DNA from: an uncultured Acidobacteriota bacterium
GTDB lineage: Bacteria > Acidobacteriota > Vicinamibacteria > Vicinamibacterales > CAVVIG01
Direction of reading: 5' to 3'
Assembly (NCBI GenBank): GCA_963789965.1
Contig: CAWBMO010000007.1
Coordinates: forward strand, 69,661-133,660
Length of the DNA: 64,000 nt
Within the stretch, counting starts at the first letter, position 1. Each line of letters starts with the position of its first letter. A program made the position numbers and the translations under genes. Under the pieces are notes generated by a model. That model saw only the letters and a program-made list of their open reading frames with translations. It had not been told where the DNA came from and ran no database searches. Below, piece by piece: positions 1,432-64,000 of this stretch.

Positions 1432-1990
1432 GCGCCAGCGCCGGATTGCCCTCGGTGCGGTCCTTGTGGTGCTGGCGGTTGTGCTGTACCGTGCAGTGAC
1501 GTCCCTGGGAGCGCCGTCAGGGACGTCCACCGCCTCCAATTCATCGTCTAACGGAAGAGCCAGGACGGCGAGATCAGCCCGTGGCCCGGCGGCTCAGGCG
1601 ACCGCGCCCGACGTGCATCTTCGCGCGCTCGACGACGAACGGCCGATACCAATCTCTGGGGAACGCAATCTGTTCCGGTTCAAACCGGCAGCGCCCCCCC
1701 CGGCGCCGCCGCGGACGACGCCGCCGCCGCCGGTCGTGCGGAATGTCCCGAGCGTGCCCGCTGGGCCAGCGCCGCCGCCACCGATTCCGCTCAAGTTCAT
1801 CGGAATTGTCGAGGCGCCGCAGTCAAAACCGATCGCGGCGCTCGTCGATTCGACCGGGCGTTCGTTTCACGGCCGGGAGGGCGACATCGTGGCGGGGCAG
1901 TATCGCATCGTGAAGATCGGTGTGGAGTCCATTGAGATGACCTATCTGGACGGCCGCGGGCGGCAGACGATTCGCCTCACCGGATCGTGA
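1421..1990 (+). CDS. PilP-like protein (membrane anchor, Pro-rich linker, C-terminal beta domain)
   Basis: 189 aa. Hydrophobic anchor (IALGAVLVVLAVVLY), PPPAPPRTTPPPP linker, C-terminal FIGIVE..ALVD..YRIVKIG..SIEM pattern as in PilP. Immediately precedes the secretin. Confidence 0.5.
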   Translation: MATERQRRIALGAVLVVLAVVLYRAVTSLGAPSGTSTASNSSSNGRARTARSARGPAAQATAPDVHLRALDDERPIPISGERNLFRFKPAAPPPAPPRTTPPPPVVRNVPSVPAGPAPPPPIPLKFIGIVEAPQSKPIAALVDSTGRSFHGREGDIVAGQYRIVKIGVESIEMTYLDGRGRQTIRLTGS

Positions 1991-2047
1991 AATTGCAGAT
2001 TGCAGATTGCGGATTGCAGATTGCTGATTCATTGCGGATGGCAGATT
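1991..2047. repeat. Tandem heptamer array (ATTGCAG)n, family C, single arm
   Basis: About 8 direct units between the pilP-like stop and the pilQ ATG. The 22 nt TCGTGAAATTGCAGATTGCAGA are identical to the start of the element at 41713. Confidence 0.85.
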
Positions 2048-4587
2048 TGAGGACACTTGTGACGAGACGGTTGAGAGCAGTCGGGATTCTCCTGGCCTTC
2101 GGCATTCTTGCCAGCGGGTGCGCGGCCGGCAGCGCGTTCCGGCAGGGCGAGAAGGCATCGCAGGCCGGGAATCTCGACGAAGCCGTCGCGGCGTACCGCA
2201 GGGCGGTGCAGGCCGATCCGAGGAACCCGAACTACGCGATCGCGCTGCAGCGCACGATGGTCGCCGCGTCCCGGGCGCATCTCGAGCGCGCAAAGGAGTT
2301 CGAAGATCGCGATCAGCTGGAAGCGGCCCTCGGCGAGTACCGCCTGGCGTCGGAGTACGACCCGAGCAACCGGACCGTCATCGTGAAGGTAGCCAGCCTC
2401 GAGCAGACGATCCGCGCTCGTATCGAGGCGTCCCGGCCGCGGCCCGCCATTGAGGCACTCCGTGCGCAGGCGCGCGCGGCATCGGCCGAACCGGCGCTCA
2501 ATCCTGCGTCGCGCGACCCGTTGAGAGTCCAGTTCCCCAATGCCCAGGTCAGAGAGGTGCTCGGCTTCATCGCCAATCTGACGGGCATCAACATCACCTA
2601 CGACCGTGATGTGGTCGACGGCCGCGCGATTTCCGTCCAACTCGACGGGGTCACGCTCGAGCAGGCGCTCAATCAGATCATGACGATTGGGCAGCTGTCG
2701 TACAAAGTCGTGAATCCGCAATCCATCTTCGTGTTTCCGGACACGACCCCCAAGCACCAGATCTACGACGAGCAGGTCATCCGCACGTTCTATATCTCGA
2801 ACGCCGATCCCACCGAGCTTGCACAAACCGTGAGCCAGCTCATTCGAATTGCCGGCATCGCCGTTCAGCCGATGATTGCGCCCAACAAGATCGCCAACAC
2901 GATCACCGTGCGCTCCACCGGCCCCATGATGCAGATCGTCGAGAAGATCATCGAGCAGAACGACAAGCCGCGCGCCGAGATCATCGTCGACGTCGAGATC
3001 CTCGAGGTCGATCGCACCCGGACGAAAAGCTACGGCCTGAATCTGAGCGAGTACGCCGTCGGGACGATCTTTTCGCCCGTAGTGGCACCAGGCGGGGTCA
3101 CGGTCTCGACGCAGCAGGGCACAGTGACCGGCCCCGGAACGGGAACGGGAACGACAACGACCGCATCCGCGGGACAAGGGACAGCGCCGAGCGCCGTCAC
3201 CTCGCCGCCGCCGTTCAATCTGAACACGATCACGCGAGGCGTGAGCACCGCCGATTTCTATCTCGCCGTGCCGACCGCGATCGTGCGGTTTCTCGAGGCC
3301 GACAACCACACCAAAGTCATCGCGAAGCCGCAGCTGCGGGGCGCAGAGGGCTCCAAGCTGACGCTGAAGCTCGGTCAGAAGATTCCCGTGGTCTCGACCA
3401 GTTATACGCCGATTGCCACCGGCGGTGCGGGCGTCAACCCGCTGAGCTCGTACACATATCAGGACGTCGGCGTCAACATCGACATGACGCCGCGCGTCTC
3501 GCTCGACGGCGAGATTATCCTCGACTTGGTCCTGGACAACAGCGCGCTCGGCCCGGACAAATCTGTTGCGGGCGTGACGGTACCCACATTCGTGCAGCGC
3601 ACGGTCACGACACGGCTGCGCCTGCGCGATGGCGAGTCCAACCTGCTCGCAGGCCTGATACAGCAGCGAGACTCGAATACCGTCCAGGGATTCCCGGGCG
3701 CGATTCATCTGCCGTTTTTCAAGCAGATCTTCTCGGGCAACGACATCACGAGCGATCAGACCGAGATCATCATGCTGCTGACGCCCCACATCGTCCGCAC
3801 GCAGGAACTGACCGAATCAGACCTGCGGCCGATCTACATCGGCTCGCAGCAGAACCTGGGCCTCGGTGGACCGCCGCCGCTCATCGCCGCGCCGGAACCG
3901 GAACCGACGCCACCGCCGGCACCTGCGCCCACGCCTGGAGCGGCAGCACCCGGGGGGGCTGCGCCGGGTACTCTCACGGGGCCCGGCGGCGTCCAGCTGT
4001 CGGCTCCGCCTGGCTCGACTCCGGTCCCAGGCACCGTTGTGGTCGTCCCGGCGCCAGCCGTCCCGGCGCCGGGTGCGCCCGCCACCAATCCTGCGGCGCC
4101 GTCTCCAGCGCCGCAGGCAACGCCACCTCCAGGGCCGCCCGCGCCGGCAGCCGGAACCTCGACCACATCGCCCGGCCTCGGCCAGGCGCAGATCATCATC
4201 TCTCCGTCTCCCACGATGCGTGTCGGCGGCGGCCCGTACACTGTTCCAATATCAGTGACGAACGCGCTGGGCCTGTCGACGGTCTCGTTGACGCTGGTGT
4301 ACGACCCCACGAAGCTCCGCATCCGGTCCGTGCAGCAGGGCAGCTTCATGCGAACCGGGGGCATCGACGTCGTCTTCACCCAGCAGGTCAACGCGGGACG
4401 GGTCGACATCACGCTCACGCGGTCGGGGGACTCGACAGGCGCATCGGGCACCGGGCTTCTCGCCGCCGTGCTCTTTGACGCGATTGCGCCGGGCACGACC
4501 GCGCTCACGACGAGCGGCGCGGCAACCGGCCCTGGAGGCGCTGCCATGGGGCTGCAGTTCCAGCCGGTCACGGTCATCGTGCAGTAA
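2038..4587 (+). CDS. pilQ: Secretin (PilQ/GspD family) with TPR-like N-terminus and C-terminal Pro/Ala linker plus cohesin-like domain
   Basis: ORF 1987..4587. The first 17 codons translate the heptamer repeat, so ATG 2038 is preferred. Signal/lipobox-like LASGC, TPR-like helices, secretin N-domains and core (RAEIIVDVEILEV, TEIIMLLTPHIV). Then a ~100-aa P/A-rich linker and a beta domain (ISPSPT..VPISV..LTLVYDPTKL). Confidence 0.85.
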   Translation: MADLRTLVTRRLRAVGILLAFGILASGCAAGSAFRQGEKASQAGNLDEAVAAYRRAVQADPRNPNYAIALQRTMVAASRAHLERAKEFEDRDQLEAALGEYRLASEYDPSNRTVIVKVASLEQTIRARIEASRPRPAIEALRAQARAASAEPALNPASRDPLRVQFPNAQVREVLGFIANLTGINITYDRDVVDGRAISVQLDGVTLEQALNQIMTIGQLSYKVVNPQSIFVFPDTTPKHQIYDEQVIRTFYISNADPTELAQTVSQLIRIAGIAVQPMIAPNKIANTITVRSTGPMMQIVEKIIEQNDKPRAEIIVDVEILEVDRTRTKSYGLNLSEYAVGTIFSPVVAPGGVTVSTQQGTVTGPGTGTGTTTTASAGQGTAPSAVTSPPPFNLNTITRGVSTADFYLAVPTAIVRFLEADNHTKVIAKPQLRGAEGSKLTLKLGQKIPVVSTSYTPIATGGAGVNPLSSYTYQDVGVNIDMTPRVSLDGEIILDLVLDNSALGPDKSVAGVTVPTFVQRTVTTRLRLRDGESNLLAGLIQQRDSNTVQGFPGAIHLPFFKQIFSGNDITSDQTEIIMLLTPHIVRTQELTESDLRPIYIGSQQNLGLGGPPPLIAAPEPEPTPPPAPAPTPGAAAPGGAAPGTLTGPGGVQLSAPPGSTPVPGTVVVVPAPAVPAPGAPATNPAAPSPAPQATPPPGPPAPAAGTSTTSPGLGQAQIIISPSPTMRVGGGPYTVPISVTNALGLSTVSLTLVYDPTKLRIRSVQQGSFMRTGGIDVVFTQQVNAGRVDITLTRSGDSTGASGTGLLAAVLFDAIAPGTTALTTSGAATGPGGAAMGLQFQPVTVIVQ

Positions 4588-4597
4588 CGGTGCCTCG

Positions 4598-5209
4598 ATG
4601 GTCCCTGGTCCCTGGTCCTTCGTGCTTGGTCCGTCCCTGGTCCTTAGTCGTCCCTGGGCCTTGGCGCCTGGTGCACACCACGGACCGAGGACCAAGGACG
4701 GACTAAGGACTAAGAACGGACCAAGGACCAAGGCCCAAGGACTAAGGACCGACGACGGATACACGTTCATAGAGCTGCTCGTCGTCGCCACGATCATTCT
4801 GATTCTGGCATCGGCCATCATGCCGCTCGTGCGCGTCACGTCGACCCGCCAGCGCGAGGCCGAGCTGCGGCGCGATCTGCGGGAAATCCGCACGGCCATC
4901 GACAAGTTCAAGGACGCCGCCGACACCATGCAGATCAGCCCGCTCGACCTGAAGCCGGACGGCATGGGCTATCCGCCCGATCTCGAGACGCTTGTCGAAG
5001 GGGTGACCGCGGCGAACGATCAGGCCGCGCGCAAGCTCAAGTTTCTGCGGCGTGTCCCGGTGGATCCCATGACGCACGACACCGAGTGGGGGATGCGTTC
5101 GTACCAGGACGATCCGGACGCCACACGGTGGGGCGGACAGAATGTGTTCGACGTCTACACGAAGTTCGAAGGAACGGCGCTGGACGGGACCAAATACAAA
5201 GACTGGTGA
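4598..5209 (+). CDS. GspG-like pseudopilin / type IV pilin-like protein
   Basis: Prepilin motif G|YTFIELLVV with Glu at +5. GspG-like body (RRVPVDPMT..W). Start is uncertain: the in-frame candidates are ATG 4598 or TTG 4664, both inside hairpin repeat A1. Confidence 0.75.
   Translation: MVPGPWSFVLGPSLVLSRPWALAPGAHHGPRTKDGLRTKNGPRTKAQGLRTDDGYTFIELLVVATIILILASAIMPLVRVTSTRQREAELRRDLREIRTAIDKFKDAADTMQISPLDLKPDGMGYPPDLETLVEGVTAANDQAARKLKFLRRVPVDPMTHDTEWGMRSYQDDPDATRWGGQNVFDVYTKFEGTALDGTKYKDW
4600..4750. repeat. Tandem-heptamer palindrome, family A (GGTCCYT)n ... (ARGGACC)n
   Basis: ~75-nt left arm of GGTCCCT/GGTCCTT units, apex near 4675, right arm of AAGGACC/TAAGGAC units. Lies between pilQ and the first pseudopilin. 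Confidence 0.9.
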
Positions 5210-8030: not shown

Positions 8031-8126
8031 GAATCTGGTCATCTGGTTATCTGGTCATCTAGTCAATGATTTGGGTCACTCCTGAAATCAATGACCAGAT
8101 AACCAGATGACTAGATGACCAAATTC
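8031..8126. repeat. Tandem-octamer palindrome, family D (CTGGTCAT)n ... (ATGACCAG)n
   Basis: GAATCTGGTCATCTGGTTATCTGGTCATCTAGTCAATGATTT pairs with AAATCAATGACCAGATAACCAGATGACTAGATGACCAAATTC. Lies between convergent genes. The stop of the minus-strand gene is in the right foot. Confidence 0.9.
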
Positions 8127-10196: not shown

Positions 10197-10283
10197 TTGG
10201 TCGTTGGTCATTAGTCGTTGGTCGTTGGTTGGTCACCAGCCCTTGACGAACGTGTAACGACTAATGACTAATGACCAACGACC
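10197..10283. repeat. Tandem-heptamer palindrome, family E (TTGGTCGT/TTGGTCAT)n ... (ACGACYAA)n
   Basis: Lies in the murQ/xerD divergent spacer. The right arm ends one nt before the xerD GTG. Confidence 0.85.
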
Positions 10284-21762: not shown

Positions 21763-21882
21763 GAATCGGGTAATCGAGCCATCGCGTAATTGGGTAATTG
21801 CCCCGATGTCGGAAACTGCCCAGCTACCCTGGGACCCGACTACCCAATTGCCCGATGACCCGATGACCCGATGACTCGATTC
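21763..21882. repeat. Tandem-octamer palindrome, family B (imperfect)
   Basis: GAATCGGGTAATCGAGCC..GTAATTGGGTAATTG pairs with CAATTGCCCGATGACCCGATGACCCGATGACTCGATTC. Lies between the nuclease gene and parA. Confidence 0.7.
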
Positions 21883-41714: not shown

Positions 41715-41793
41715 GTGAAATTGCAGATTGCAGAATTCAGATTGTAGATTCATTGCAGATTCAATCTGAATTCTGCAATCTGAAATCTGCAAT
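41715..41793. repeat. Tandem-heptamer palindrome, family C (ATTGCAG)n ... (CTGCAAT)n
   Basis: 25-bp stem ATTGCAGATTGCAGAATTCAGATTG / CAATCTGAATTCTGCAATCTG..CAAT, 17-nt loop. The right arm encodes the RecJ C-terminus and stop. Confidence 0.9.
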
Positions 41794-57457: not shown

Positions 57458-57467
57458 AATGACACCT

Positions 57468-57543
57468 GAATCGGGTAATTGGATAATCGGGTAATTGAGT
57501 AATTGCGATTACCCAATTACCCAATTACCCGATTACCCAATGC
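57468..57543. repeat. Tandem-octamer palindrome, family B
   Basis: The left arm GAATCGGGTAATTGGATAATCGGGTAATTGAGTAAT is identical to 31354-31389. The right arm contains the psd stop. Lies inside the psd-pssA operon. Confidence 0.9.
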
Positions 57544-58185
57544 CCCTGTCTGTGAGTGTAGCACCGCGATGACGGTTTCGCCGCCGCGCACCATGTCGCC
57601 GACTGCAACAGTAATCGTGGCATCAAGCGGCACGAACACATCCATCCGCGAGCCGAATTTCATGATGCCGAAACGGTCACCGGCGCGCACGTCTGTACCG
57701 GTTGCCACGCGACAGACAACGCGCCGGGCCAGCATCCCGACGATTTGACGGGCCACGATCGTCTGACCGCCGTGATCGATCCAGATCTCACTCCGCTCAT
57801 TGGTCGTACCTGCATCGTGCCGGTACGCCGGCAGAAACCGGCCGGGCTTGAACGTCACCCGCGTGACACGACCGGAAGCCGGAATGCGATTGACGTGCAC
57901 GTCCATGGGCGACAGAAAGATACTGACCTGCTGCCACGATCCGGGCGGGGACGATTCTGCGGGGGCCAGGCCGGCCACTAGCACGCGGCCATCCGCCGGC
58001 GAGAGCACCGCCTCCTCATCTGACGGCGACAGTCGATCCGGATCGCGGAAGAAAAAGAGGAAGAAGCCCGCGAGAAGAAGGAACGGCAACGCCCCCAGCC
58101 AGGCGCCAGCGACAACCCACGCGAGCGCGAGGGCAAGCGCGCCGCCGATGAACGGCAACGCGGCGGGATCGATGTGAATGGCCAT
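57517..58185 (-). CDS. psd: Phosphatidylserine decarboxylase-related proenzyme
   Basis: 222 aa. N-terminal TM helices. FLSPMDVHVNR and the self-cleavage region FGSRMD. The stop codon lies in repeat B4. Confidence 0.8.
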   Translation of the reverse strand: MAIHIDPAALPFIGGALALALAWVVAGAWLGALPFLLLAGFFLFFFRDPDRLSPSDEEAVLSPADGRVLVAGLAPAESSPPGSWQQVSIFLSPMDVHVNRIPASGRVTRVTFKPGRFLPAYRHDAGTTNERSEIWIDHGGQTIVARQIVGMLARRVVCRVATGTDVRAGDRFGIMKFGSRMDVFVPLDATITVAVGDMVRGGETVIAVLHSQTGALGNRVIG

Positions 58186-58198
58186 CGATCACTATCTT

Positions 58199-58274
58199 AA
58201 GAGGTTCGAGAGGTTTCGAGAGATTCGAAAGGTTCGAGAGGTTCTAGAACCCTTAGAACCTCTCGAACCTCTCG
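58199..58274. repeat. Tandem-nonamer palindrome, family G (GAGAGGTTC)n ... (GAACCTCTC)n
   Basis: Centred on GGTTCTAGAACC (58241-58252). Lies between the DUF465 gene and psd. Confidence 0.85.
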
Positions 58275-58577: not shown

Positions 58578-59054
58578 TCAAGGTCCGTCATGGGCTAGGC
58601 CGTCCAGACCCTCGCGCCAGAGGATGATCGCGTCCTCGACGGGCTTGGTGTAGTAGGCACGCCGTATGCCGGCCACCGAAAAGCCGAAACGTTCGTACAA
58701 AAGGCGTGCCGGTTCGTTCGACAGGCGAACCTCGAGGGTGGCCCGAACGGCCCCAAATCGGGCGCCTTCGCGCAAGACATGGTGCAGCAGGGCCGTCGCC
58801 GCGCCCGCGCGGCGGTCCCGGGGCATGACGGCAAGGTTATTGATATGGAGCTCGTCCATGACCCGCCAGAACGAGCAGAACCCGACGACGTCGCGATCGG
58901 TATTTCTGGCCAGGTAGCAGTAAGAGACGCCCTGGTTCTCGAGTTCGGCCAGATACATTTCGCGCGTCCACGGATTCGTGAACGAGGCTTCCTCAACCGC
59001 GAGCACCGCCTCGACCTCCGCGGGCGACGTCAGCCGTTCGATGATCCAGTCCAT
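58578..59054 (-). CDS. rimI: Ribosomal-protein-alanine N-acetyltransferase (GNAT)
   Basis: ATG 59054 (the upstream ORF part is translated repeat F3). GNAT motif A (LAVMPRDRRAGAATALL). Downstream of tsaB, as usual. Confidence 0.8.
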   Translation of the reverse strand: MDWIIERLTSPAEVEAVLAVEEASFTNPWTREMYLAELENQGVSYCYLARNTDRDVVGFCSFWRVMDELHINNLAVMPRDRRAGAATALLHHVLREGARFGAVRATLEVRLSNEPARLLYERFGFSVAGIRRAYYTKPVEDAIILWREGLDGLAHDGP

Positions 59055-59061
59055 TAACCAG

Positions 59062-59150
59062 TCAACACAAAGGACACCAAGGACACAAAGGTAAAACACC
59101 TTTGAGTATTTCCTTAGTCTCTTTTGTGTCCATGGTGTCCATTGTGTTGA
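59062..59150. repeat. F-type palindrome (TCAACACAAAGGACACCAAGGACACAAAGG / rc)
   Basis: ~30-bp stem. Lies between tsaB and rimI. The tsaB stop is in the loop/right arm. Confidence 0.85.
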
Positions 59151-59878
59151 GCGGTCTTCCGTTCCCGTTCGACTTCGGCGTCAGGCCTCCGCACGTACAA
59201 GGGTTGCACCGCCGCTGGATCGATCGTGTCCCCACGCTCGGCGCGCGCCAGCGCGATGCGGCCGATGGCACCGGCAAGCAGGGGCGTCTGTGGCAGCCGC
59301 GTCCAGCCGGGTGACGCGCCCCTGGAAATGGTATCGATGGTGTCCGCATGCAGTATCGCGCCGTCACCGACGAACAGCACGCGGGCGTCGCGGATGTGGC
59401 TCCTCCACCGCGTCAGCGTCGCAGCCGGCTTGCCAACGCTCGGTCCTTCCACTTCGACCAAACGCTCCGGAGAAAACGCCGCGGCATCAGTGATTTTGTA
59501 CAGCGCCGTGAACACATCCTGGCGACGGGCATCGATCCACGCGGCGACGAACGTTCCGGGCGGGCCGCCACTGCTCTGCGCCAGCGCCTCGAGGGCCGAA
59601 ACCGCCACGACTCGCCGTCCTGTGGTGAGCGCGAGCCCCTGGATCGTCGCGATACCGATCCGCAGGCCGGTGAACGATCCGGGGCCGGACGCGACCGCGA
59701 ACACATCGATCCCGCTCACGGATAATCCGTGCGCTCCGGCCAGCCGAACGAGCTCGTCTGGCAGTCGCTCGGCGTGAGAGCGCGCGGCATCGCCGCGGCG
59801 CTCCTCGACAACGTGATGTTGGTCGACGAGCGCCACACTCCCGTCGCGCGTCGTCGTATCAAGCGCCAGCACATGCAT
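59114..59878 (-). CDS. tsaB: tRNA t6A biosynthesis protein TsaB
   Basis: 254 aa. LALDTTT..SVAL and GPGSFTGLRIG motifs. The C-terminal ~12 codons and the stop lie in repeat F3. Confidence 0.85.
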   Translation of the reverse strand: MHVLALDTTTRDGSVALVDQHHVVEERRGDAARSHAERLPDELVRLAGAHGLSVSGIDVFAVASGPGSFTGLRIGIATIQGLALTTGRRVVAVSALEALAQSSGGPPGTFVAAWIDARRQDVFTALYKITDAAAFSPERLVEVEGPSVGKPAATLTRWRSHIRDARVLFVGDGAILHADTIDTISRGASPGWTRLPQTPLLAGAIGRIALARAERGDTIDPAAVQPLYVRRPDAEVERERKTAQHNGHHGHKRD

Positions 59879-59895: not shown

Positions 59896-62604
59896 ATGTC
59901 AACGTCGGCGACGCCGGCGATGCGCCAGTATCTGGACGCGAAGCAGCAGTATCGCGACGCCATCCTGTTCTTCCGCATGGGCGACTTCTACGAAATGTTC
60001 TACGAAGACGCCCTCGTCGCGGCGCGCGCCCTCGAATTGACGCTCACGTCACGATCCAGGGACGGGAACGGCGGCGGCATCCCGATGTGCGGCGTGCCGT
60101 TTCACGCCGTCGACGGCTACATCGCGCGGCTCGTCAAGAAGGGGTTCCGCGTCGCCATCTGCGATCAGGTCGAGGACCCGCGAAAAGCCAAGGGGCTCGT
60201 CAAGCGCGAGGTCGTCCGCGTCGTGTCGCCCGGCACGCTGACCGACGCGAGTTACCTCGACGCGCGCGAGCCGGCGTTTCTGATGGCTGTATTCTCGGCG
60301 GGCCCCAACCGCCTTCGCGCCTCCGGCGCTTCGGCGAGTCGCGCCGAAGCTCGCGGGCAAAGCGTGCGGGCGGAGGCGGAAGGACCCGCCCTACAGCACC
60401 ACGTGATCGGCGCCGCTCTTCTCGATCTCTCAACCGGCGAATTCACGACAGCGGAATATCGCGGCGCTGACGGGCCGGCGGCGCTGGCGGATGAAATTGC
60501 GCTGCTCAAGCCGCGCGAGATTATCGCGCCGGCCGACGCCGACATCCCCATGATCACGGCGTCGGGGGTTCCTGTCACGCTGGTCGATGCGTGGACGTTC
60601 GACGCCGAATCCGCGCGCCGCGCGCTTCTCGACCAGCTTCGGGCGGGCAGCCTCGAGGGGTTCGGGCTGGAGGGACGGCACGCCGCGGTCGCGGCTGCCG
60701 GAGCGCTCGTCCACCATCTGCGCACCACGCAGAAGCTGGACCTCGCTCACGTGCGCGCCATCCGGTACCGGGAGCGCCGTGACACGCTGCTCATCGATCC
60801 GACAACGCTCAAACACCTGGAGATCGTCGAAGGCTCCGAGGGTGGCCGTGCGGGTTCATTGCTTGACGAACTCGATCGGACGGTCACCTCGATCGGCAGC
60901 CGGCTCCTCAGGTCGTGGCTGCTCGGGCCGCTCGTCGCACTTGAACCGATTCGCGATCGGCTCGACGCCGTCGAGGAGATCGCCTTTCGGACCACCGAGC
61001 GCGGCAAACTCCGAGAAGCGCTCAAGTTCGTTCAGGACCTCGATCGGCTGGTCGCTCGAGCCGCTCTTGGAACCGCCGGCCCACGCGATTTTCTCGGCCT
61101 GAAACAATCCCTGACGGTCATCCCGCGCATCCGTACCGTCCTTGCCGATCTGCACGCCCCCCTCGCCTGCTCCCTTGTCTCGGAACTGGACGACCTCGTC
61201 GACGTGCGGAACGCGATCGAAAGCACCGTGCTCGAGGATGCGCCTGCCCTGGCGCGCGATGGCGGAATCATCCGGGACGGCGTTGACACGGAGCTCGACG
61301 AGCTCCGCACCATCAGTCGCTCGGGGAAGCAGGTCATCGCCGAGATGGAGACGCGCGAGCGCGCACGCACCGGCATTGCATCGCTCAAGATCCGCTACAA
61401 CCGCGTATTCGGGTACTACATCGAGATCTCGAAGTCGAACCTCGGCGCCGTGCCGCCGGATTACCATCGCAAGCAGACGATTGCGGGTGGCGAACGCTTC
61501 ATTACCCCGGCACTGAAGGAGTACGAGGAGAAAGTCCTCGGCGCCGACGAACGCATTCTCGAACGGGAGCTCGAGATTTTCGAAAAGCTGCGCTGTGCGG
61601 TGGCCGGCGAGGCCCCGCGGATTCAAGCCACTTCGAGAGCGCTCGCCGCGCTCGACGTGCTCGCGGCGCTGGCCGAGACCGCGGCCGCGAACAACTACGT
61701 CAAACCGCACGTGCACGACGGCGACGAGCTGGTCGTCGGCGACGCGCGGCACCCGGTTGTCGAACGCCGCGCCGCTGCCGCCGGCGAGCCATTCGTGCCC
61801 AACGACATCAGCCTCAACGGCACGACGTCGCAGCTCATGATCCTGACCGGCCCGAACATGGGCGGCAAGTCGACCTACTTGCGCCAGACGGCGCTCGTCA
61901 CCGTCATGGCGCAGGCGGGATCGTTCGTCCCCGCCCGCGAGGCGAAAATCCCGCTCGTCGATCGCATCTTCGCGCGGGTGGGCGCGTCGGACAATATCGC
62001 GCGCGGCCACTCGACCTTCATGGTCGAGATGCAGGAAACCGCCAACATCCTGCACAACGCGACCGGCCGCAGCCTCGTTGTGCTCGACGAGATCGGCCGC
62101 GGCACGTCGACCTTCGACGGCTTGAGCATCGCGTGGGCGGTCGCCGAGTATCTCGCGACCAATGCTGTGGCAAGACCGAAGACGCTCTTTGCCACGCACT
62201 ACCACGAGCTCACCGACCTGGCGGACGCCACGCCCGGCGTCGTCAACTTTCACGTCGCAGCCCGCGAGTGGAAGGACGATATCGTGTTCCTCCGCAAGAT
62301 CGTGCCGGGCCGGTCCGATCGCAGCTATGGGATTCAGGTGGCGCGGCTCGCGGGCCTGCCGCCCGCCGTCATCAATCGCGCCCGTGAGATTCTCGCGGCG
62401 CTCGAGCGGGACGAGCTGACCCGGGGCGGAAGGCCCTCGGTGAGCGGCACTCCCGCCGATCCGCAGCGGCAGCTCGGGTTGTTTCAGAGCCAGCCGGCCG
62501 ACGATCGGCTGCGCGAACGGCTGTCCGCGCTCGACGTCGATCGGACGACGCCGATCGAGGCGCTGGCGCTGTTGGCCGATCTCAAGAAAGAGGCGCAGGG
62601 ATGA
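59896..62604 (+). CDS. mutS: DNA mismatch repair protein MutS
   Basis: 902 aa. TPAMRQYL..K, FFRMGDFYE, Walker A (GPNMGGKST), and DEIGRGTSTFDG. Confidence 0.95.
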   Translation: MSTSATPAMRQYLDAKQQYRDAILFFRMGDFYEMFYEDALVAARALELTLTSRSRDGNGGGIPMCGVPFHAVDGYIARLVKKGFRVAICDQVEDPRKAKGLVKREVVRVVSPGTLTDASYLDAREPAFLMAVFSAGPNRLRASGASASRAEARGQSVRAEAEGPALQHHVIGAALLDLSTGEFTTAEYRGADGPAALADEIALLKPREIIAPADADIPMITASGVPVTLVDAWTFDAESARRALLDQLRAGSLEGFGLEGRHAAVAAAGALVHHLRTTQKLDLAHVRAIRYRERRDTLLIDPTTLKHLEIVEGSEGGRAGSLLDELDRTVTSIGSRLLRSWLLGPLVALEPIRDRLDAVEEIAFRTTERGKLREALKFVQDLDRLVARAALGTAGPRDFLGLKQSLTVIPRIRTVLADLHAPLACSLVSELDDLVDVRNAIESTVLEDAPALARDGGIIRDGVDTELDELRTISRSGKQVIAEMETRERARTGIASLKIRYNRVFGYYIEISKSNLGAVPPDYHRKQTIAGGERFITPALKEYEEKVLGADERILERELEIFEKLRCAVAGEAPRIQATSRALAALDVLAALAETAAANNYVKPHVHDGDELVVGDARHPVVERRAAAAGEPFVPNDISLNGTTSQLMILTGPNMGGKSTYLRQTALVTVMAQAGSFVPAREAKIPLVDRIFARVGASDNIARGHSTFMVEMQETANILHNATGRSLVVLDEIGRGTSTFDGLSIAWAVAEYLATNAVARPKTLFATHYHELTDLADATPGVVNFHVAAREWKDDIVFLRKIVPGRSDRSYGIQVARLAGLPPAVINRAREILAALERDELTRGGRPSVSGTPADPQRQLGLFQSQPADDRLRERLSALDVDRTTPIEALALLADLKKEAQG

Positions 62605-64000
62605 GGCGCCGCGTGTTTTTCACCACAAAGGACACTAAGGACACAAAGGCCAGAACCGGTTCGTTCCTCTGTGTCCTTTGTGTCCTTTGTGTTCCTGCCT
62701 GCCTTGAACGGCCCACTCTTAATCCGAACGTCCTCGTCGTCGCGATGCCGAGCGGACCCAATAGTCTCGACCCTCGGGTCGGACTCGACGATGCGTCGCA
62801 GAAGATCCATCAGTTGATCTTCGACAATCTGTTCGAGCTCGACGACAAGATGCGTGTGAGGCCGAAGCTCGCCGAAACACTCGACCACCCGACGCCCACG
62901 ACCTACGTCGTCACACTCAAGCACGGGGTTCGTTTTCAAGACGGGCACGAGCTGACATCGGCTGATGTCGTCTATACGTTCCGGAGCTTCTTGGATCCCG
63001 ATTTCGTGTCCGGACGTAAGGGCGGGTACCGCGAGCTTCATTCCGTTGACACGATCGACCGGTACACCGTGGTCTTTACTCTCGACAGACCCTTCACGTC
63101 TTTCCCGATTAATCTCGTCATGCCCATCGTGCCCGACGGCGCTGGTGCCACGCTCTCGAGACGTCCCATGGGCACGGGACCGTACCGGTTCGTTCGCTAT
63201 GCGGTCGACGATCGCATCGAACTTGAGCCTTTCAACGAGTACTTCGGCGGCCGCCCGCGCAATGACGGGCTGATCATAAAGGTCGTGCCCGACGACATCA
63301 TGCGCGGGCTCGAGTTGCGGAAGGGGACGACGGACCTGGTCATCAACGACCTGACGCCGGACATCGTCTTCCAGCTCGAAAAGAGCGACCGGCTGCAGCT
63401 GGTCGAAGCGCCGGGTGTCGATTACCAGTATCTCGGACTGAACCTGCAAGACCCTGTACTAAAGGATGTCAGAGTCCGCCAGGCCCTCGCGTACGCAATC
63501 GACACGCACGCGATCATCGAATATCTGCGACGCGGGCTCGCGACGCCGGCGACAGGGCTTATGCCCCGTCAGTCCTGGGCGATTGCTCCCGATGTACGCG
63601 CGTACCCGTTCGATCCGGATCGTGCAAGAGCGCTTCTCGACGAGGCAGGCTACCGCGATCCGGATGGCGACGGTCCAGCGCCCCGCCTGCTCCTGAGCTT
63701 GAAAATCTCCAGCGCTCAGGAATTCAACCGGCTGCAGGCGTCAGTCATACAGCAACACCTGCGTGCCGTCGGCATCGATCTCGACGTGCGCACCTACGAG
63801 TTCGCGACGCTGTTTTCGGACGTACTGAAGGGGAACTTTCAGATATACAGCCTGCAGTGGACGGCCGGCTCGCTCGCCGATCCCGATATGCTCCGCCGCG
63901 TCTTTCATTCGAAACAGGTGCCGCCCGAAGGGTTCAACCGCGGTCACTTCAGCGATCCACGAGTGGATGCCCTGCTCGACGAAGCCGCCTCCTCGACCGA
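62601..64000 (+). CDS. ABC transporter substrate-binding protein, family 5 (peptide/nickel type), 3' end outside window
   Basis: The frame is open from ATG 62601 (overlaps the mutS stop, ATGA) to the window edge, so it is absent from the ORF track. LDPRVGLDDASQ..IFDNLFELD, VTLKHGVRFQDGHELTSADVVYTF, GTGPYRF. Codons 8-34 are repeat F4. Confidence 0.75.
   Translation, partial: MRRRVFFTTKDTKDTKARTGSFLCVLCVLCVPACLERPTLNPNVLVVAMPSGPNSLDPRVGLDDASQKIHQLIFDNLFELDDKMRVRPKLAETLDHPTPTTYVVTLKHGVRFQDGHELTSADVVYTFRSFLDPDFVSGRKGGYRELHSVDTIDRYTVVFTLDRPFTSFPINLVMPIVPDGAGATLSRRPMGTGPYRFVRYAVDDRIELEPFNEYFGGRPRNDGLIIKVVPDDIMRGLELRKGTTDLVINDLTPDIVFQLEKSDRLQLVEAPGVDYQYLGLNLQDPVLKDVRVRQALAYAIDTHAIIEYLRRGLATPATGLMPRQSWAIAPDVRAYPFDPDRARALLDEAGYRDPDGDGPAPRLLLSLKISSAQEFNRLQASVIQQHLRAVGIDLDVRTYEFATLFSDVLKGNFQIYSLQWTAGSLADPDMLRRVFHSKQVPPEGFNRGHFSDPRVDALLDEAASST
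62621..62695. repeat. F-type palindrome inside the 5' end of the substrate-binding protein gene
   Basis: CACCACAAAGGACACTAAGGACACAAAGG - 17-nt loop - CTCTGTGTCCTTTGTGTCCTTTGTGTTCC. Confidence 0.85.

Follow-up and report, generated by a model that had tools for sequence, protein, structure and literature searches.

Can a dispersed inverted repeat at the 5' end of a gene supply the export signal of the protein encoded there? The question is raised by a 64,000-nucleotide stretch of DNA from an uncultured Acidobacteriota bacterium of the Vicinamibacterales (contig CAWBMO010000007.1, positions 69,661 to 133,660), referred to here as the window, in which a hairpin of the type called F lies at the junction of mutS and a gene for a substrate-binding protein (SBP). 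Our overall reading, which we draw from sequence comparison and hold with good confidence, is that this dispersed palindromic repeat is located inside the 5' end of the SBP gene, is translated, and forms a predicted lipoprotein signal peptide. Taking the parts separately, it is very probable that the hairpin is translated and makes up both the n-region and the h-region, and likely that the predicted peptide works as a lipoprotein signal peptide.

Reading frame and structure of the hairpin

The features of the junction, given as positions in the window, are the following.

59896..62604 (+): mutS, 902 amino acids, from the list of open reading frames, with its TGA stop at 62602-62604
62601..62603 (+): ATG start of the SBP precursor, overlapping the mutS stop as ATGA
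62613..62615 (+): alternative in-frame GTG start, from the start list
62624-62657 and 62658-62691 (+): the arms of the F-type inverted repeat, 34 nt per arm, 85% complementary, with a 0-nt spacer
62624..62657 (+): left, A-rich arm, read as T-K-D-T-K-D-T-K-A-R-T, a polar, basic n-region
62654..62661 (+): apex of the palindrome, AACCGGTT, with its centre at 62657|62658, a codon boundary
62658..62693 (+): right, T-rich arm, (CTT TGT GTC)n GTT, read as G-S-F-L-C-V-L-C-V-L-C-V, a hydrophobic h-region with lipobox position -3
62694..62702 (+): P-A-C, lipobox positions -2, -1 and +1 Cys (Cys34), placed by orthologue alignment
62703..62744 (+): beginning of the mature part, with the linker and the first beta-strand (LERPTLNPNVLVVA)
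62745..64000 (+): remaining SBP_bac_5 domain, from Pfam, continuing beyond the end of the window

The SBP frame is open from 62388, and before 62745 its only ATG, GTG or TTG codons are ATG 62601 and GTG 62613. Translation from 62601 gives MRRRVFFTTKDTKDTKARTGSFLCVLCVLCVPAC-LERPTLNPNVLVVAMPSGP and reads through both arms to Cys34 (62700-62702). The initial annotation had named the same two codons as the only in-frame starts, with ATG 62601 overlapping the mutS stop as ATGA, and had read the frame through both arms; the start list bears out the first point, and our translation is identical to the peptide given there. A Shine-Dalgarno-like GAGG motif is found 7 nt upstream of ATG 62601, and GTG 62613 lacks a conserved counterpart in orthologues; as starts, the two codons are computationally indistinguishable. 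The downstream protein is an SBP_bac_5 protein (PF00496, E = 5.5e-83) that matches PDB entry 5u4o at E = 1.8e-46. Because solved homologues align only from query residue ~39-45, the first ~38 residues are extra to the fold. On the other side of the junction, the identity of mutS is supported by Pfam domains MutS_I-V on the called genes at two syntenic loci, L014 and L017 (loci and proteins from other genomes are referred to by L and P numbers, respectively).

Each arm of the hairpin consists of three tandem 9-mers, the arm units being GGACACAAA and TTTGTGTCC; the 9-nt units are of the CACAAAGGA type in the left arm and of the TCCTTTGTG type in the right arm, and the palindrome begins with TTCACCAC… and ends with …TTTGTGTT. 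When one mismatch is allowed, the unit GGACACAAAGG occurs nine times in the window, compared with an expectation of 0.63. The RNA of 62590-62720 folds at -58 kcal/mol (z = -4.8), and 0 of 200 shuffled sequences were as stable. Rfam gave no match in the whole window at gathering thresholds, and when the hairpin was scanned permissively the sole matches were to generic miRNA hairpins below threshold (<=32 bits, where thresholds are >=87). No terminator-like or promoter-like site was found in a scan of 62300-62900; the sequence directly after the stem is CCTGCCTGCC, and the GC-rich stem followed by a U-tract that characterizes an intrinsic terminator is not seen there.

Complementary arms and the two halves of the predicted signal

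The polar-then-hydrophobic reading follows from the geometry of the palindrome. Because its centre coincides with a codon boundary, codons in mirrored positions are reverse complementary, as in the exact pairs AAG/CTT (K/L), GAC/GTC (D/V) and ACA/TGT (T/C). Where a codon of one arm has A as its middle base, its mirror codon has T, and hydrophilic residues are therefore matched by hydrophobic ones. This is an instance of sense/antisense hydropathic complementarity, in which middle-A codons complement middle-T codons and the peptides encoded by opposite strands, or by opposite arms of a hairpin, differ in the sign of their hydropathy. The idea was originally proposed for peptide-peptide recognition; here, by contrast, it explains how the two halves of an export signal can come from one palindrome. 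In 19 other F hairpins, 84 of the 114 strand-by-frame readings are stop-free, and 81 of these 84 have a polar first third and a hydrophobic last third (mean Kyte-Doolittle hydropathy -2.4 versus +1.7). The order is thus independent of phase, and since the element is palindromic, the polar-then-hydrophobic reading is obtained on both strands.

Considered as a signal peptide, the translated repeat has an n-region with a net charge of +5 from ATG 62601 or +2 from GTG 62613. Its uncharged run, TGSFLCVLCVLCVPA, is 15 residues long, within the ~7-22 residues usual for an h-region, and reaches a maximum 9-residue Kyte-Doolittle hydropathy of 3.5, compared with 2.2-3.2 in orthologues with conventional signal peptides; all three values (charge, uncharged run and hydropathy) equal or exceed those of the conventional orthologues. 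The repeat stops three codons before Cys34, in a lipobox with V at -3, P at -2, A at -1, C at +1 and L at +2, of which P alone departs from the pattern [LVI][ASTVI][GAS]C. The peptide shares with lipoprotein signal peptides cleaved by signal peptidase II (SPase II) a basic n-region, an uncharged h-region, a small residue at -1 and an invariant +1 Cys. It differs from ordinary SPase II signal peptides in that its n- and h-regions come from the two arms of one inverted repeat, its h-region repeats the tripeptide LCV a variable number of times, it has Pro at -2, and its n-region is unusually long. PROSITE-like and G+LPPv2-like expressions gave mixed results for hairpin-bearing and conventional orthologues and did not discriminate between them, and a Pfam scan of the N-termini gave no match to a lipoprotein-attachment-site model for either kind.

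Orthologues share the start and the cysteine

A search of 5.8 billion proteins returned hundreds of close relatives of the SBP, the few that bear an organism label being from Vicinamibacterales or Acidobacteriota, and we compared the N-termini of the top 40. A Cys followed by L-x-RPTPNPNVLVVA is present in 35 of the 40, these being the 35 whose gene call includes the N-terminus, and in the same 35 the Cys is invariant and position -1 is [AGS]. What precedes the Cys is of three types: a lipoprotein signal peptide of the conventional kind (such as MIRRLACAVLLLACAAC or MKAALPLLVALAVVPAC), the repeat found in the window (such as MNTKDTKGQTGLLLCVLCVLCVPAC), and the right arm alone (such as MRWRRVLCVLCVLGVPGC). 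In the hairpin-bearing orthologues there is no other hydrophobic segment upstream of the Cys. Because the Cys of VPAC in the window aligns with the invariant Cys and L-x-RPTPNPNVLVVA, Cys34 is the lipoprotein +1 Cys of the family.

A scan of metagenomes by protein yielded 12 loci, 7 of them useful. In the DNA of 16 orthologous loci, synteny of mutS and the SBP gene is kept, as is the SBP start codon that overlaps the mutS stop, whether or not the repeat is present. The ATGA overlap is kept in L001, L002/3, L004, L005/6, L013, L014/15 and L138-143, including the distant hairpin-less loci L005/L006 (ATGAAG…, MKRLSGALLLAMSTAC), and in orthologues that lack the hairpin the stretch from this ATGA start to this Cys is occupied by a conventional lipoprotein signal peptide.

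These comparisons bear on three points of the initial annotation. The assignment of a charged n-region to the left arm and a hydrophobic h-region to the right arm is supported by the charge and hydropathy values. The VPAC motif had been called a weak lipobox: P at -2 is indeed atypical, but within this family the motif is less weak than it was taken to be, with its Cys invariant and VPAC present also in the hairpin-less orthologues P0035 and P0037. Finally, comparison with orthologues had been suggested as a way of exposing an unrelated conventional signal peptide at a different start, and what the orthologues have instead is conventional signal peptides that share both the start and the cleavage Cys.

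Coding-type evolution upstream of ATG 62745

If translation began at the next ATG, at 62745, the hairpin would not be translated. Counted from Cys34, the 15 codons that precede ATG 62745 have pS 0.51, pN 0.056 and pN/pS 0.11 (55 sequence pairs pooled), and the codon equivalent to 62745 is ATG in 5 of 11 orthologues and Ile (ATA/ATT/ATC) in the other 6. Since the linker evolves as coding sequence and Met 62745 is not conserved, initiation must occur upstream of the right arm. We read ATG 62745 as an internal Met and not the start, in agreement with the earlier view that a start there was implausible.

Our set of 11 distinct repeat-bearing sequences comprises the window, L013, L138, L014, L015, L016, L017, L141, L140, L001 and L002. 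In all 11, no stop interrupts the frame between the start that overlaps mutS and the Cys, and the precursor up to the Cys is 17, 18, 25, 26, 30, 34, 35, 43 or 49 codons long. The most direct comparison is between L014 (4677-4735) and L015 (1081-1121), which have five and three right-arm LCV units, respectively, a difference of 18 nt. The flanks of these two metagenome contigs are 99.7% identical (2/900 and 7/2600 bases differ), and the predicted signal peptide has an uncharged run of 21 residues in L014 and of 15 in L015. The difference may be real strain variation; an assembly artefact is less likely. L141 corresponds to L014 with 27 nt of its left arm lost, again in frame.

In L017 (3663-3690), the mutS stop (TAA inside GGACACTAAGG) and the SBP start (ATGGACAC…) both come from the left arm, and 11 nt of the repeat belong to both genes.

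The mature SBP has dN/dS of 0.07-0.12 at dS of 0.5-0.95, with L017 and L140 excluded because their internal indels break the ungapped comparison. Such strong purifying selection indicates that the hairpin-bearing alleles are working genes of a protein family that requires export.

Public gene calls for P0002, P0009, P0011 and P0022 begin at the internal Met (MPSGPNNLDP…) and lose the signal peptide. For P0009 (= L014/L015) and P0022 (= L141), the DNA is open from the mutS-overlapping ATG despite the short gene call. To judge from these loci, the short calls look like a systematic mis-annotation caused by the repeat.

Constraint at the nucleotide level

The right arm is conserved beyond its peptide. 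Synonymous third positions in the seven codons that the right arm contributes ahead of the lipobox show 96.7% identity among 11 orthologues, compared with 65-72% synonymous identity in the following 60 codons. The codons used in the arm are rare in the flanking genes, where CTT accounts for 10% of Leu, GTT for 8% of Val and ACA for 8% of Thr. The synonymous conservation persists without the left arm (L001, L002, L141); stem pairing alone is therefore insufficient as its cause. Possible sources of the constraint are a sequence-specific binding factor, homogenization against other copies of the repeat, or recent repeated acquisition.

Proposed origin

The steps that we propose are as follows. 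Translation would start at the ATG overlapping the mutS stop, with GTG 62613 as a possible alternative. The A-rich 5' arm would be read as a Lys/Thr/Asp-rich n-region of net positive charge and the T-rich 3' arm as a Leu-Cys-Val h-region, with Cys34 and then the conserved mature N-terminus following the repeat, and the precursor would presumably be recognized by Sec, Lgt and LspA. The repeat itself probably arrived by insertion and would have displaced most of an ancestral signal peptide, M-I-R-R-L-A-C-A-V-L-L-L-A-C-x-x-C, while its 9-nt unit would keep the frame whenever copies are gained or lost. Two constraints would act on it at present, one at the level of the peptide (export) and one at the level of the nucleotide sequence.

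All of the more distant orthologues but one are conventional, which makes the conventional signal peptide the ancestral form, and in a neighbour-joining tree of the mature regions the repeat-bearing forms cluster in the clade of the window, interleaved with conventional ones. In this lineage specifically, a predicted signal peptide encoded by the repeat has taken the place of a conventional one. Insertion is favoured because the unit and the ends of the repeat recur at unrelated loci and because L141 resembles a deletion derivative of L014. Conventional alleles (L142 and L143) occur in the same clade; their junctions are remodelled, and no target-site duplication can be defined.

Other repeats are found at the same place. 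A small hairpin, GGCGGGTCCAAAAGGACCCGCC, is read in frame as an n-region, GGSKRTRPTT, at L004:2884-3003, L014:4593-4640, L015:997-1044 and L141:412-450, and at L007:~90-200 two copies of GTCCGCCTTCAGGCGGAC at the mutS/SBP junction are likewise read in frame as n-region. The junction of the mutS stop and the SBP start is an insertion hot spot. In the otherwise conventional signal peptide of P0014 (L143:1001-1070), F-G-V-L-C is encoded with GGT GTG CTG TGT, where the F arm has GGT GTC CTT TGT; this may be a decayed and domesticated arm in which the peptide was kept while nucleotide identity was lost.

Objections and alternative explanations

Several observations weigh against a translated repeat that serves as an export signal. 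As a signal peptide, the sequence is unusual in its Pro at lipobox -2, its Cys-rich h-region, and an n-region that is long (17-21 residues) and contains two Asp. The PROSITE-like lipoprotein pattern fails for the SBP of the window, as it does for 16 of 20 N-terminal models, 3 of them conventional. A stem of ~-46 kcal/mol within the first 34 codons might hinder translation. Slippage of a 9-nt unit gives in-frame indels by itself, so that these indels are a weaker sign of selection than they seem, and the orthologue DNA is derived from metagenome assemblies. The interleaving of hairpin, right-arm-only and conventional forms on the neighbour-joining tree would fit one insertion, several insertions, or recombination. 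Finally, the synonymous conservation of the right arm indicates that something besides the peptide is conserved, and the coding role could be secondary.

This last objection leads to the strongest of the alternatives, that the hairpin is a selfish element, or one acting at the level of RNA or DNA, whose translation is passively tolerated and brings no benefit as a signal peptide. It might decouple, stabilize or attenuate the mutS-SBP transcript, or bind a protein, and n- and h-regions accept nearly any sequence that is polar and then hydrophobic. The nucleotide constraint on the right arm, which extends to orthologues that have no left arm, fits this explanation, as do the unrelated small hairpins (GGCGGGTCCAAAAGGACCCGCC and GTCCGCCTTCAGGCGGAC) read in frame at the same junction and the similar hairpins in many tight gene junctions of the window. 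However, passive tolerance is compatible with a working signal peptide, there being no other hydrophobic segment upstream of the Cys, and P0014 has G-V-L-C in GC-rich synonymous codons (GGT GTG CTG TGT), as if selection had retained the peptide of an arm while its nucleotides decayed. We regard passive tolerance as possible and as the less likely account.

An origin in place, without insertion, is unlikely. Under this explanation, native h-region codons (…GTC CTT…) slipped into an LCV array, and a template-switch inverted duplication then made the left arm. In its favour, there are right-arm-only forms (L001, L002, L140), the conventional allele L142 has GTCCTT within A-V-L-L, the copy number of the array varies between near-identical strains, and the distribution on the tree is patchy. 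Yet the unit and the outer ends (TCAACACAA… and CACCAC…) recur at 59057 in the window and in at least 19 hairpins in other genomes and phyla, and L141 looks like L014 with a clean 27-nt deletion of the left arm and the terminal TTCAACACAAT kept, which indicates loss rather than gain.

A purely non-coding hairpin (a REP-like mRNA stabilizer or a mutS terminator), with the SBP starting at ATG 62745, is highly improbable and largely refuted: it would agree with the mostly intergenic location of F hairpins elsewhere, upstream of cytosolic gene starts among the matches listed, with right-arm synonymous conservation in excess of coding needs, and with the automatic gene calls that start at MPSGP in several orthologues (P0002, P0009, P0011, P0022), but the 15 codons upstream of 62745 are coding-like (pN/pS 0.11) with Met replaced by Ile in 6/11, the protein would be left without an export signal in a family that is extracytoplasmic and has an invariant Cys, the short-called loci are open from the ATGA start, and 62300-62900 holds no terminator-like site. 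Insertion of a translated repeat that provides a predicted lipoprotein signal peptide is the explanation that we retain.

The repeat family in the window and in other genomes

Hairpins in the window were taken from the list of inverted repeats; a detector of tandem runs gave almost nothing. The further hairpins, all of which lie outside the SBP gene, are the following.

59057..59155: second F-type hairpin, between the tsaB stop and the rimI start (both minus strand), mostly non-coding; kept in L014
43540: F-type half copy
8033-8116, 10197-10283, 21765-21872, 41720-41793, 57461-57550 and 58217-58274: other tandem-arm hairpins
4595-4755: large hairpin with GGTCCTTGG / CCAAGGACC-type units, beginning 8 nt past the stop of the gene at 1936..4587

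At the second F-type hairpin, the frame of tsaB (59114..59878, minus) enters 59057-59155 for ~14 codons (…NGHHGHKRD*), and the longest open reading frame of rimI (58578..59099, minus) would start inside the hairpin (MFYLCVLGVLCVDWL-MDWIIERL), the likely start being a downstream ATG. At L017 a tandem repeat of the CCTAAGC type stands in place of the tsaB/rimI hairpin.

The arms of the six other tandem-arm hairpins are tandem 7-9-nt repeats with differing units (ATCTGGTY, GGTCGTT, GGGTAATYG, ATTGCAG, CGAGAGGTT). There is roughly one tandem-arm hairpin for every 7 kb, most are in very narrow spacers separating co-oriented genes, and none has an Rfam match. The large hairpin at 4595-4755 covers every in-frame start (ATG 4598, GTG 4622 and TTG 4661) of the gene at 4598..5209 (+), which is of the prepilin type, with the N_methyl motif G|YTFIELLVV at residues 53-74. 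Since the hairpin overlaps all of these starts, the pilin leader peptide would be hairpin-encoded.

A 15-mer scan of reference genomes gave at least 120 loci, mostly chance matches in unrelated phyla, and we used these only where there was a mirrored arm or a clear coding context. Among the matches listed there are at least 19 hairpins with a mirrored arm, mainly in Acidobacteriota; records labelled otherwise are from Saprospiraceae, Betaproteobacteria, Anaerolineae, Planctomycetota, Lysobacterales, Gemmatimonadetes and Prevotellaceae. The hairpins in L037, L070, L074, L078, L079, L097, L119, L129, L130 and L137 have the unit GGACACNAA or a close variant, and most of these ten share similar outer ends ((A/C)ACCAC…GTGGT) with unrelated loops. 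A search with the idealized hairpin peptide against the 5.8 billion proteins gave 13 weak matches to tiny open reading frames; because composition-bias correction removes low-complexity matches, this result is uninformative.

Most F-type copies elsewhere, among the matches listed, are upstream of the start codons of cytosolic genes. A point raised by the initial annotation was whether other copies sit at the 5' ends of exported proteins, and four loci, from four other genomes, among ~31 labelled Acidobacteriota in the same matches do so, with an F arm encoding the core of the putative signal peptide:

L115: PSCyt1/cytochrome c protein (CxxCH), MDTKEIKRVGLTFVSFVSFVVMTLASPGGSSVSHA|QQ; the signal peptides of its orthologues are ordinary (MRKSLGVVAAVVALASPAAVA, for instance)
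L104: TIGR03436 VWFA protein, MHRMFCVLSFVSFVSFVVA|AQQ
L127: LptE lipoprotein, …WLCVLGVLCAGSAALSSTAC|GYG
L073: BamB/PQQ propeller protein, in which the F arm encodes the core of the signal peptide

The F arms in exported proteins are read in differing frames (LCV, FVS, GVL). Among the matches listed, which are not a systematic census, none has an F arm as the obligatory N-terminus of a clearly cytosolic protein. We tentatively suggest that F-type hairpins, and perhaps other tandem-arm hairpins, could be portable export-signal cassettes, usable in any frame and on either strand.

Relation to known repeats

In-frame palindromic repeats are known. Rickettsia palindromic elements (RPEs), other MITEs (miniature transposable elements with inverted repeats) and ERIC/BOX fusions are dispersed palindromes located in frame in genes and translated with the open reading frame kept (PMC10969869); in that review the term signal peptide occurs 0 times. 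The repeat in the window shares with RPEs a multi-copy, dispersed palindrome inside an open reading frame whose frame and function are retained. RPEs differ in being ~100-150 bp long, in encoding their own conserved peptide, and in sitting in enzymes instead of export signals; there is no sequence similarity, and tandem 9-mer arms are present only in the window repeat.

Like the repeat, REP and BIME elements are short, imperfect, multi-copy palindromes that fill very narrow spacers separating co-oriented genes, in many cases directly behind a stop. REP superfamilies are defined by GTAG/CGTC end tags (PMC3733652). No GTAG or CGTC tag is present at the ends of the hairpin, which are (A/C)(A/C)CAC…GTG(G/T)(G/T). 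REP and BIME elements are also extragenic by definition, whereas the window copy is translated and has tandem 9-mer arms. PARCELs are dyad-symmetric coding repeats in membrane-targeted proteins that spread horizontally (PMC2996958); they differ in being 25-residue domains that are arrayed within mature proteins, in Mollicutes and other microbes, rather than one hairpin giving rise to a signal peptide, and they have no relationship in sequence.

A literature search, whose coverage was incomplete, found no paper with the repeat sequence or with repeat-encoded bacterial signal peptides. What would be new here, if the alignments are read correctly, is an in-frame palindromic repeat that serves as an export signal and that recurs across protein families.

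Implications

The locus suggests a mechanism by which 'junk' hairpin repeats can become functional protein, in that the complementarity of the code gives both halves of an export signal. The same 70 nt would be under overlapping constraints, shaped by the function of the peptide and by a requirement at the nucleic-acid level. For annotation, the problem is that gene callers lose the export signal by starting at an internal Met. If the mechanism is general, repeat insertion followed by domestication would be a source of new or replaced signal peptides. Should F-type hairpins indeed be portable cassettes, one that lands at the 5' end of a gene could create, extend or replace a signal peptide, 9-nt slippage could tune the length of the h-region, and such insertions would be a general route by which repeats rewire protein localization in Acidobacteriota.

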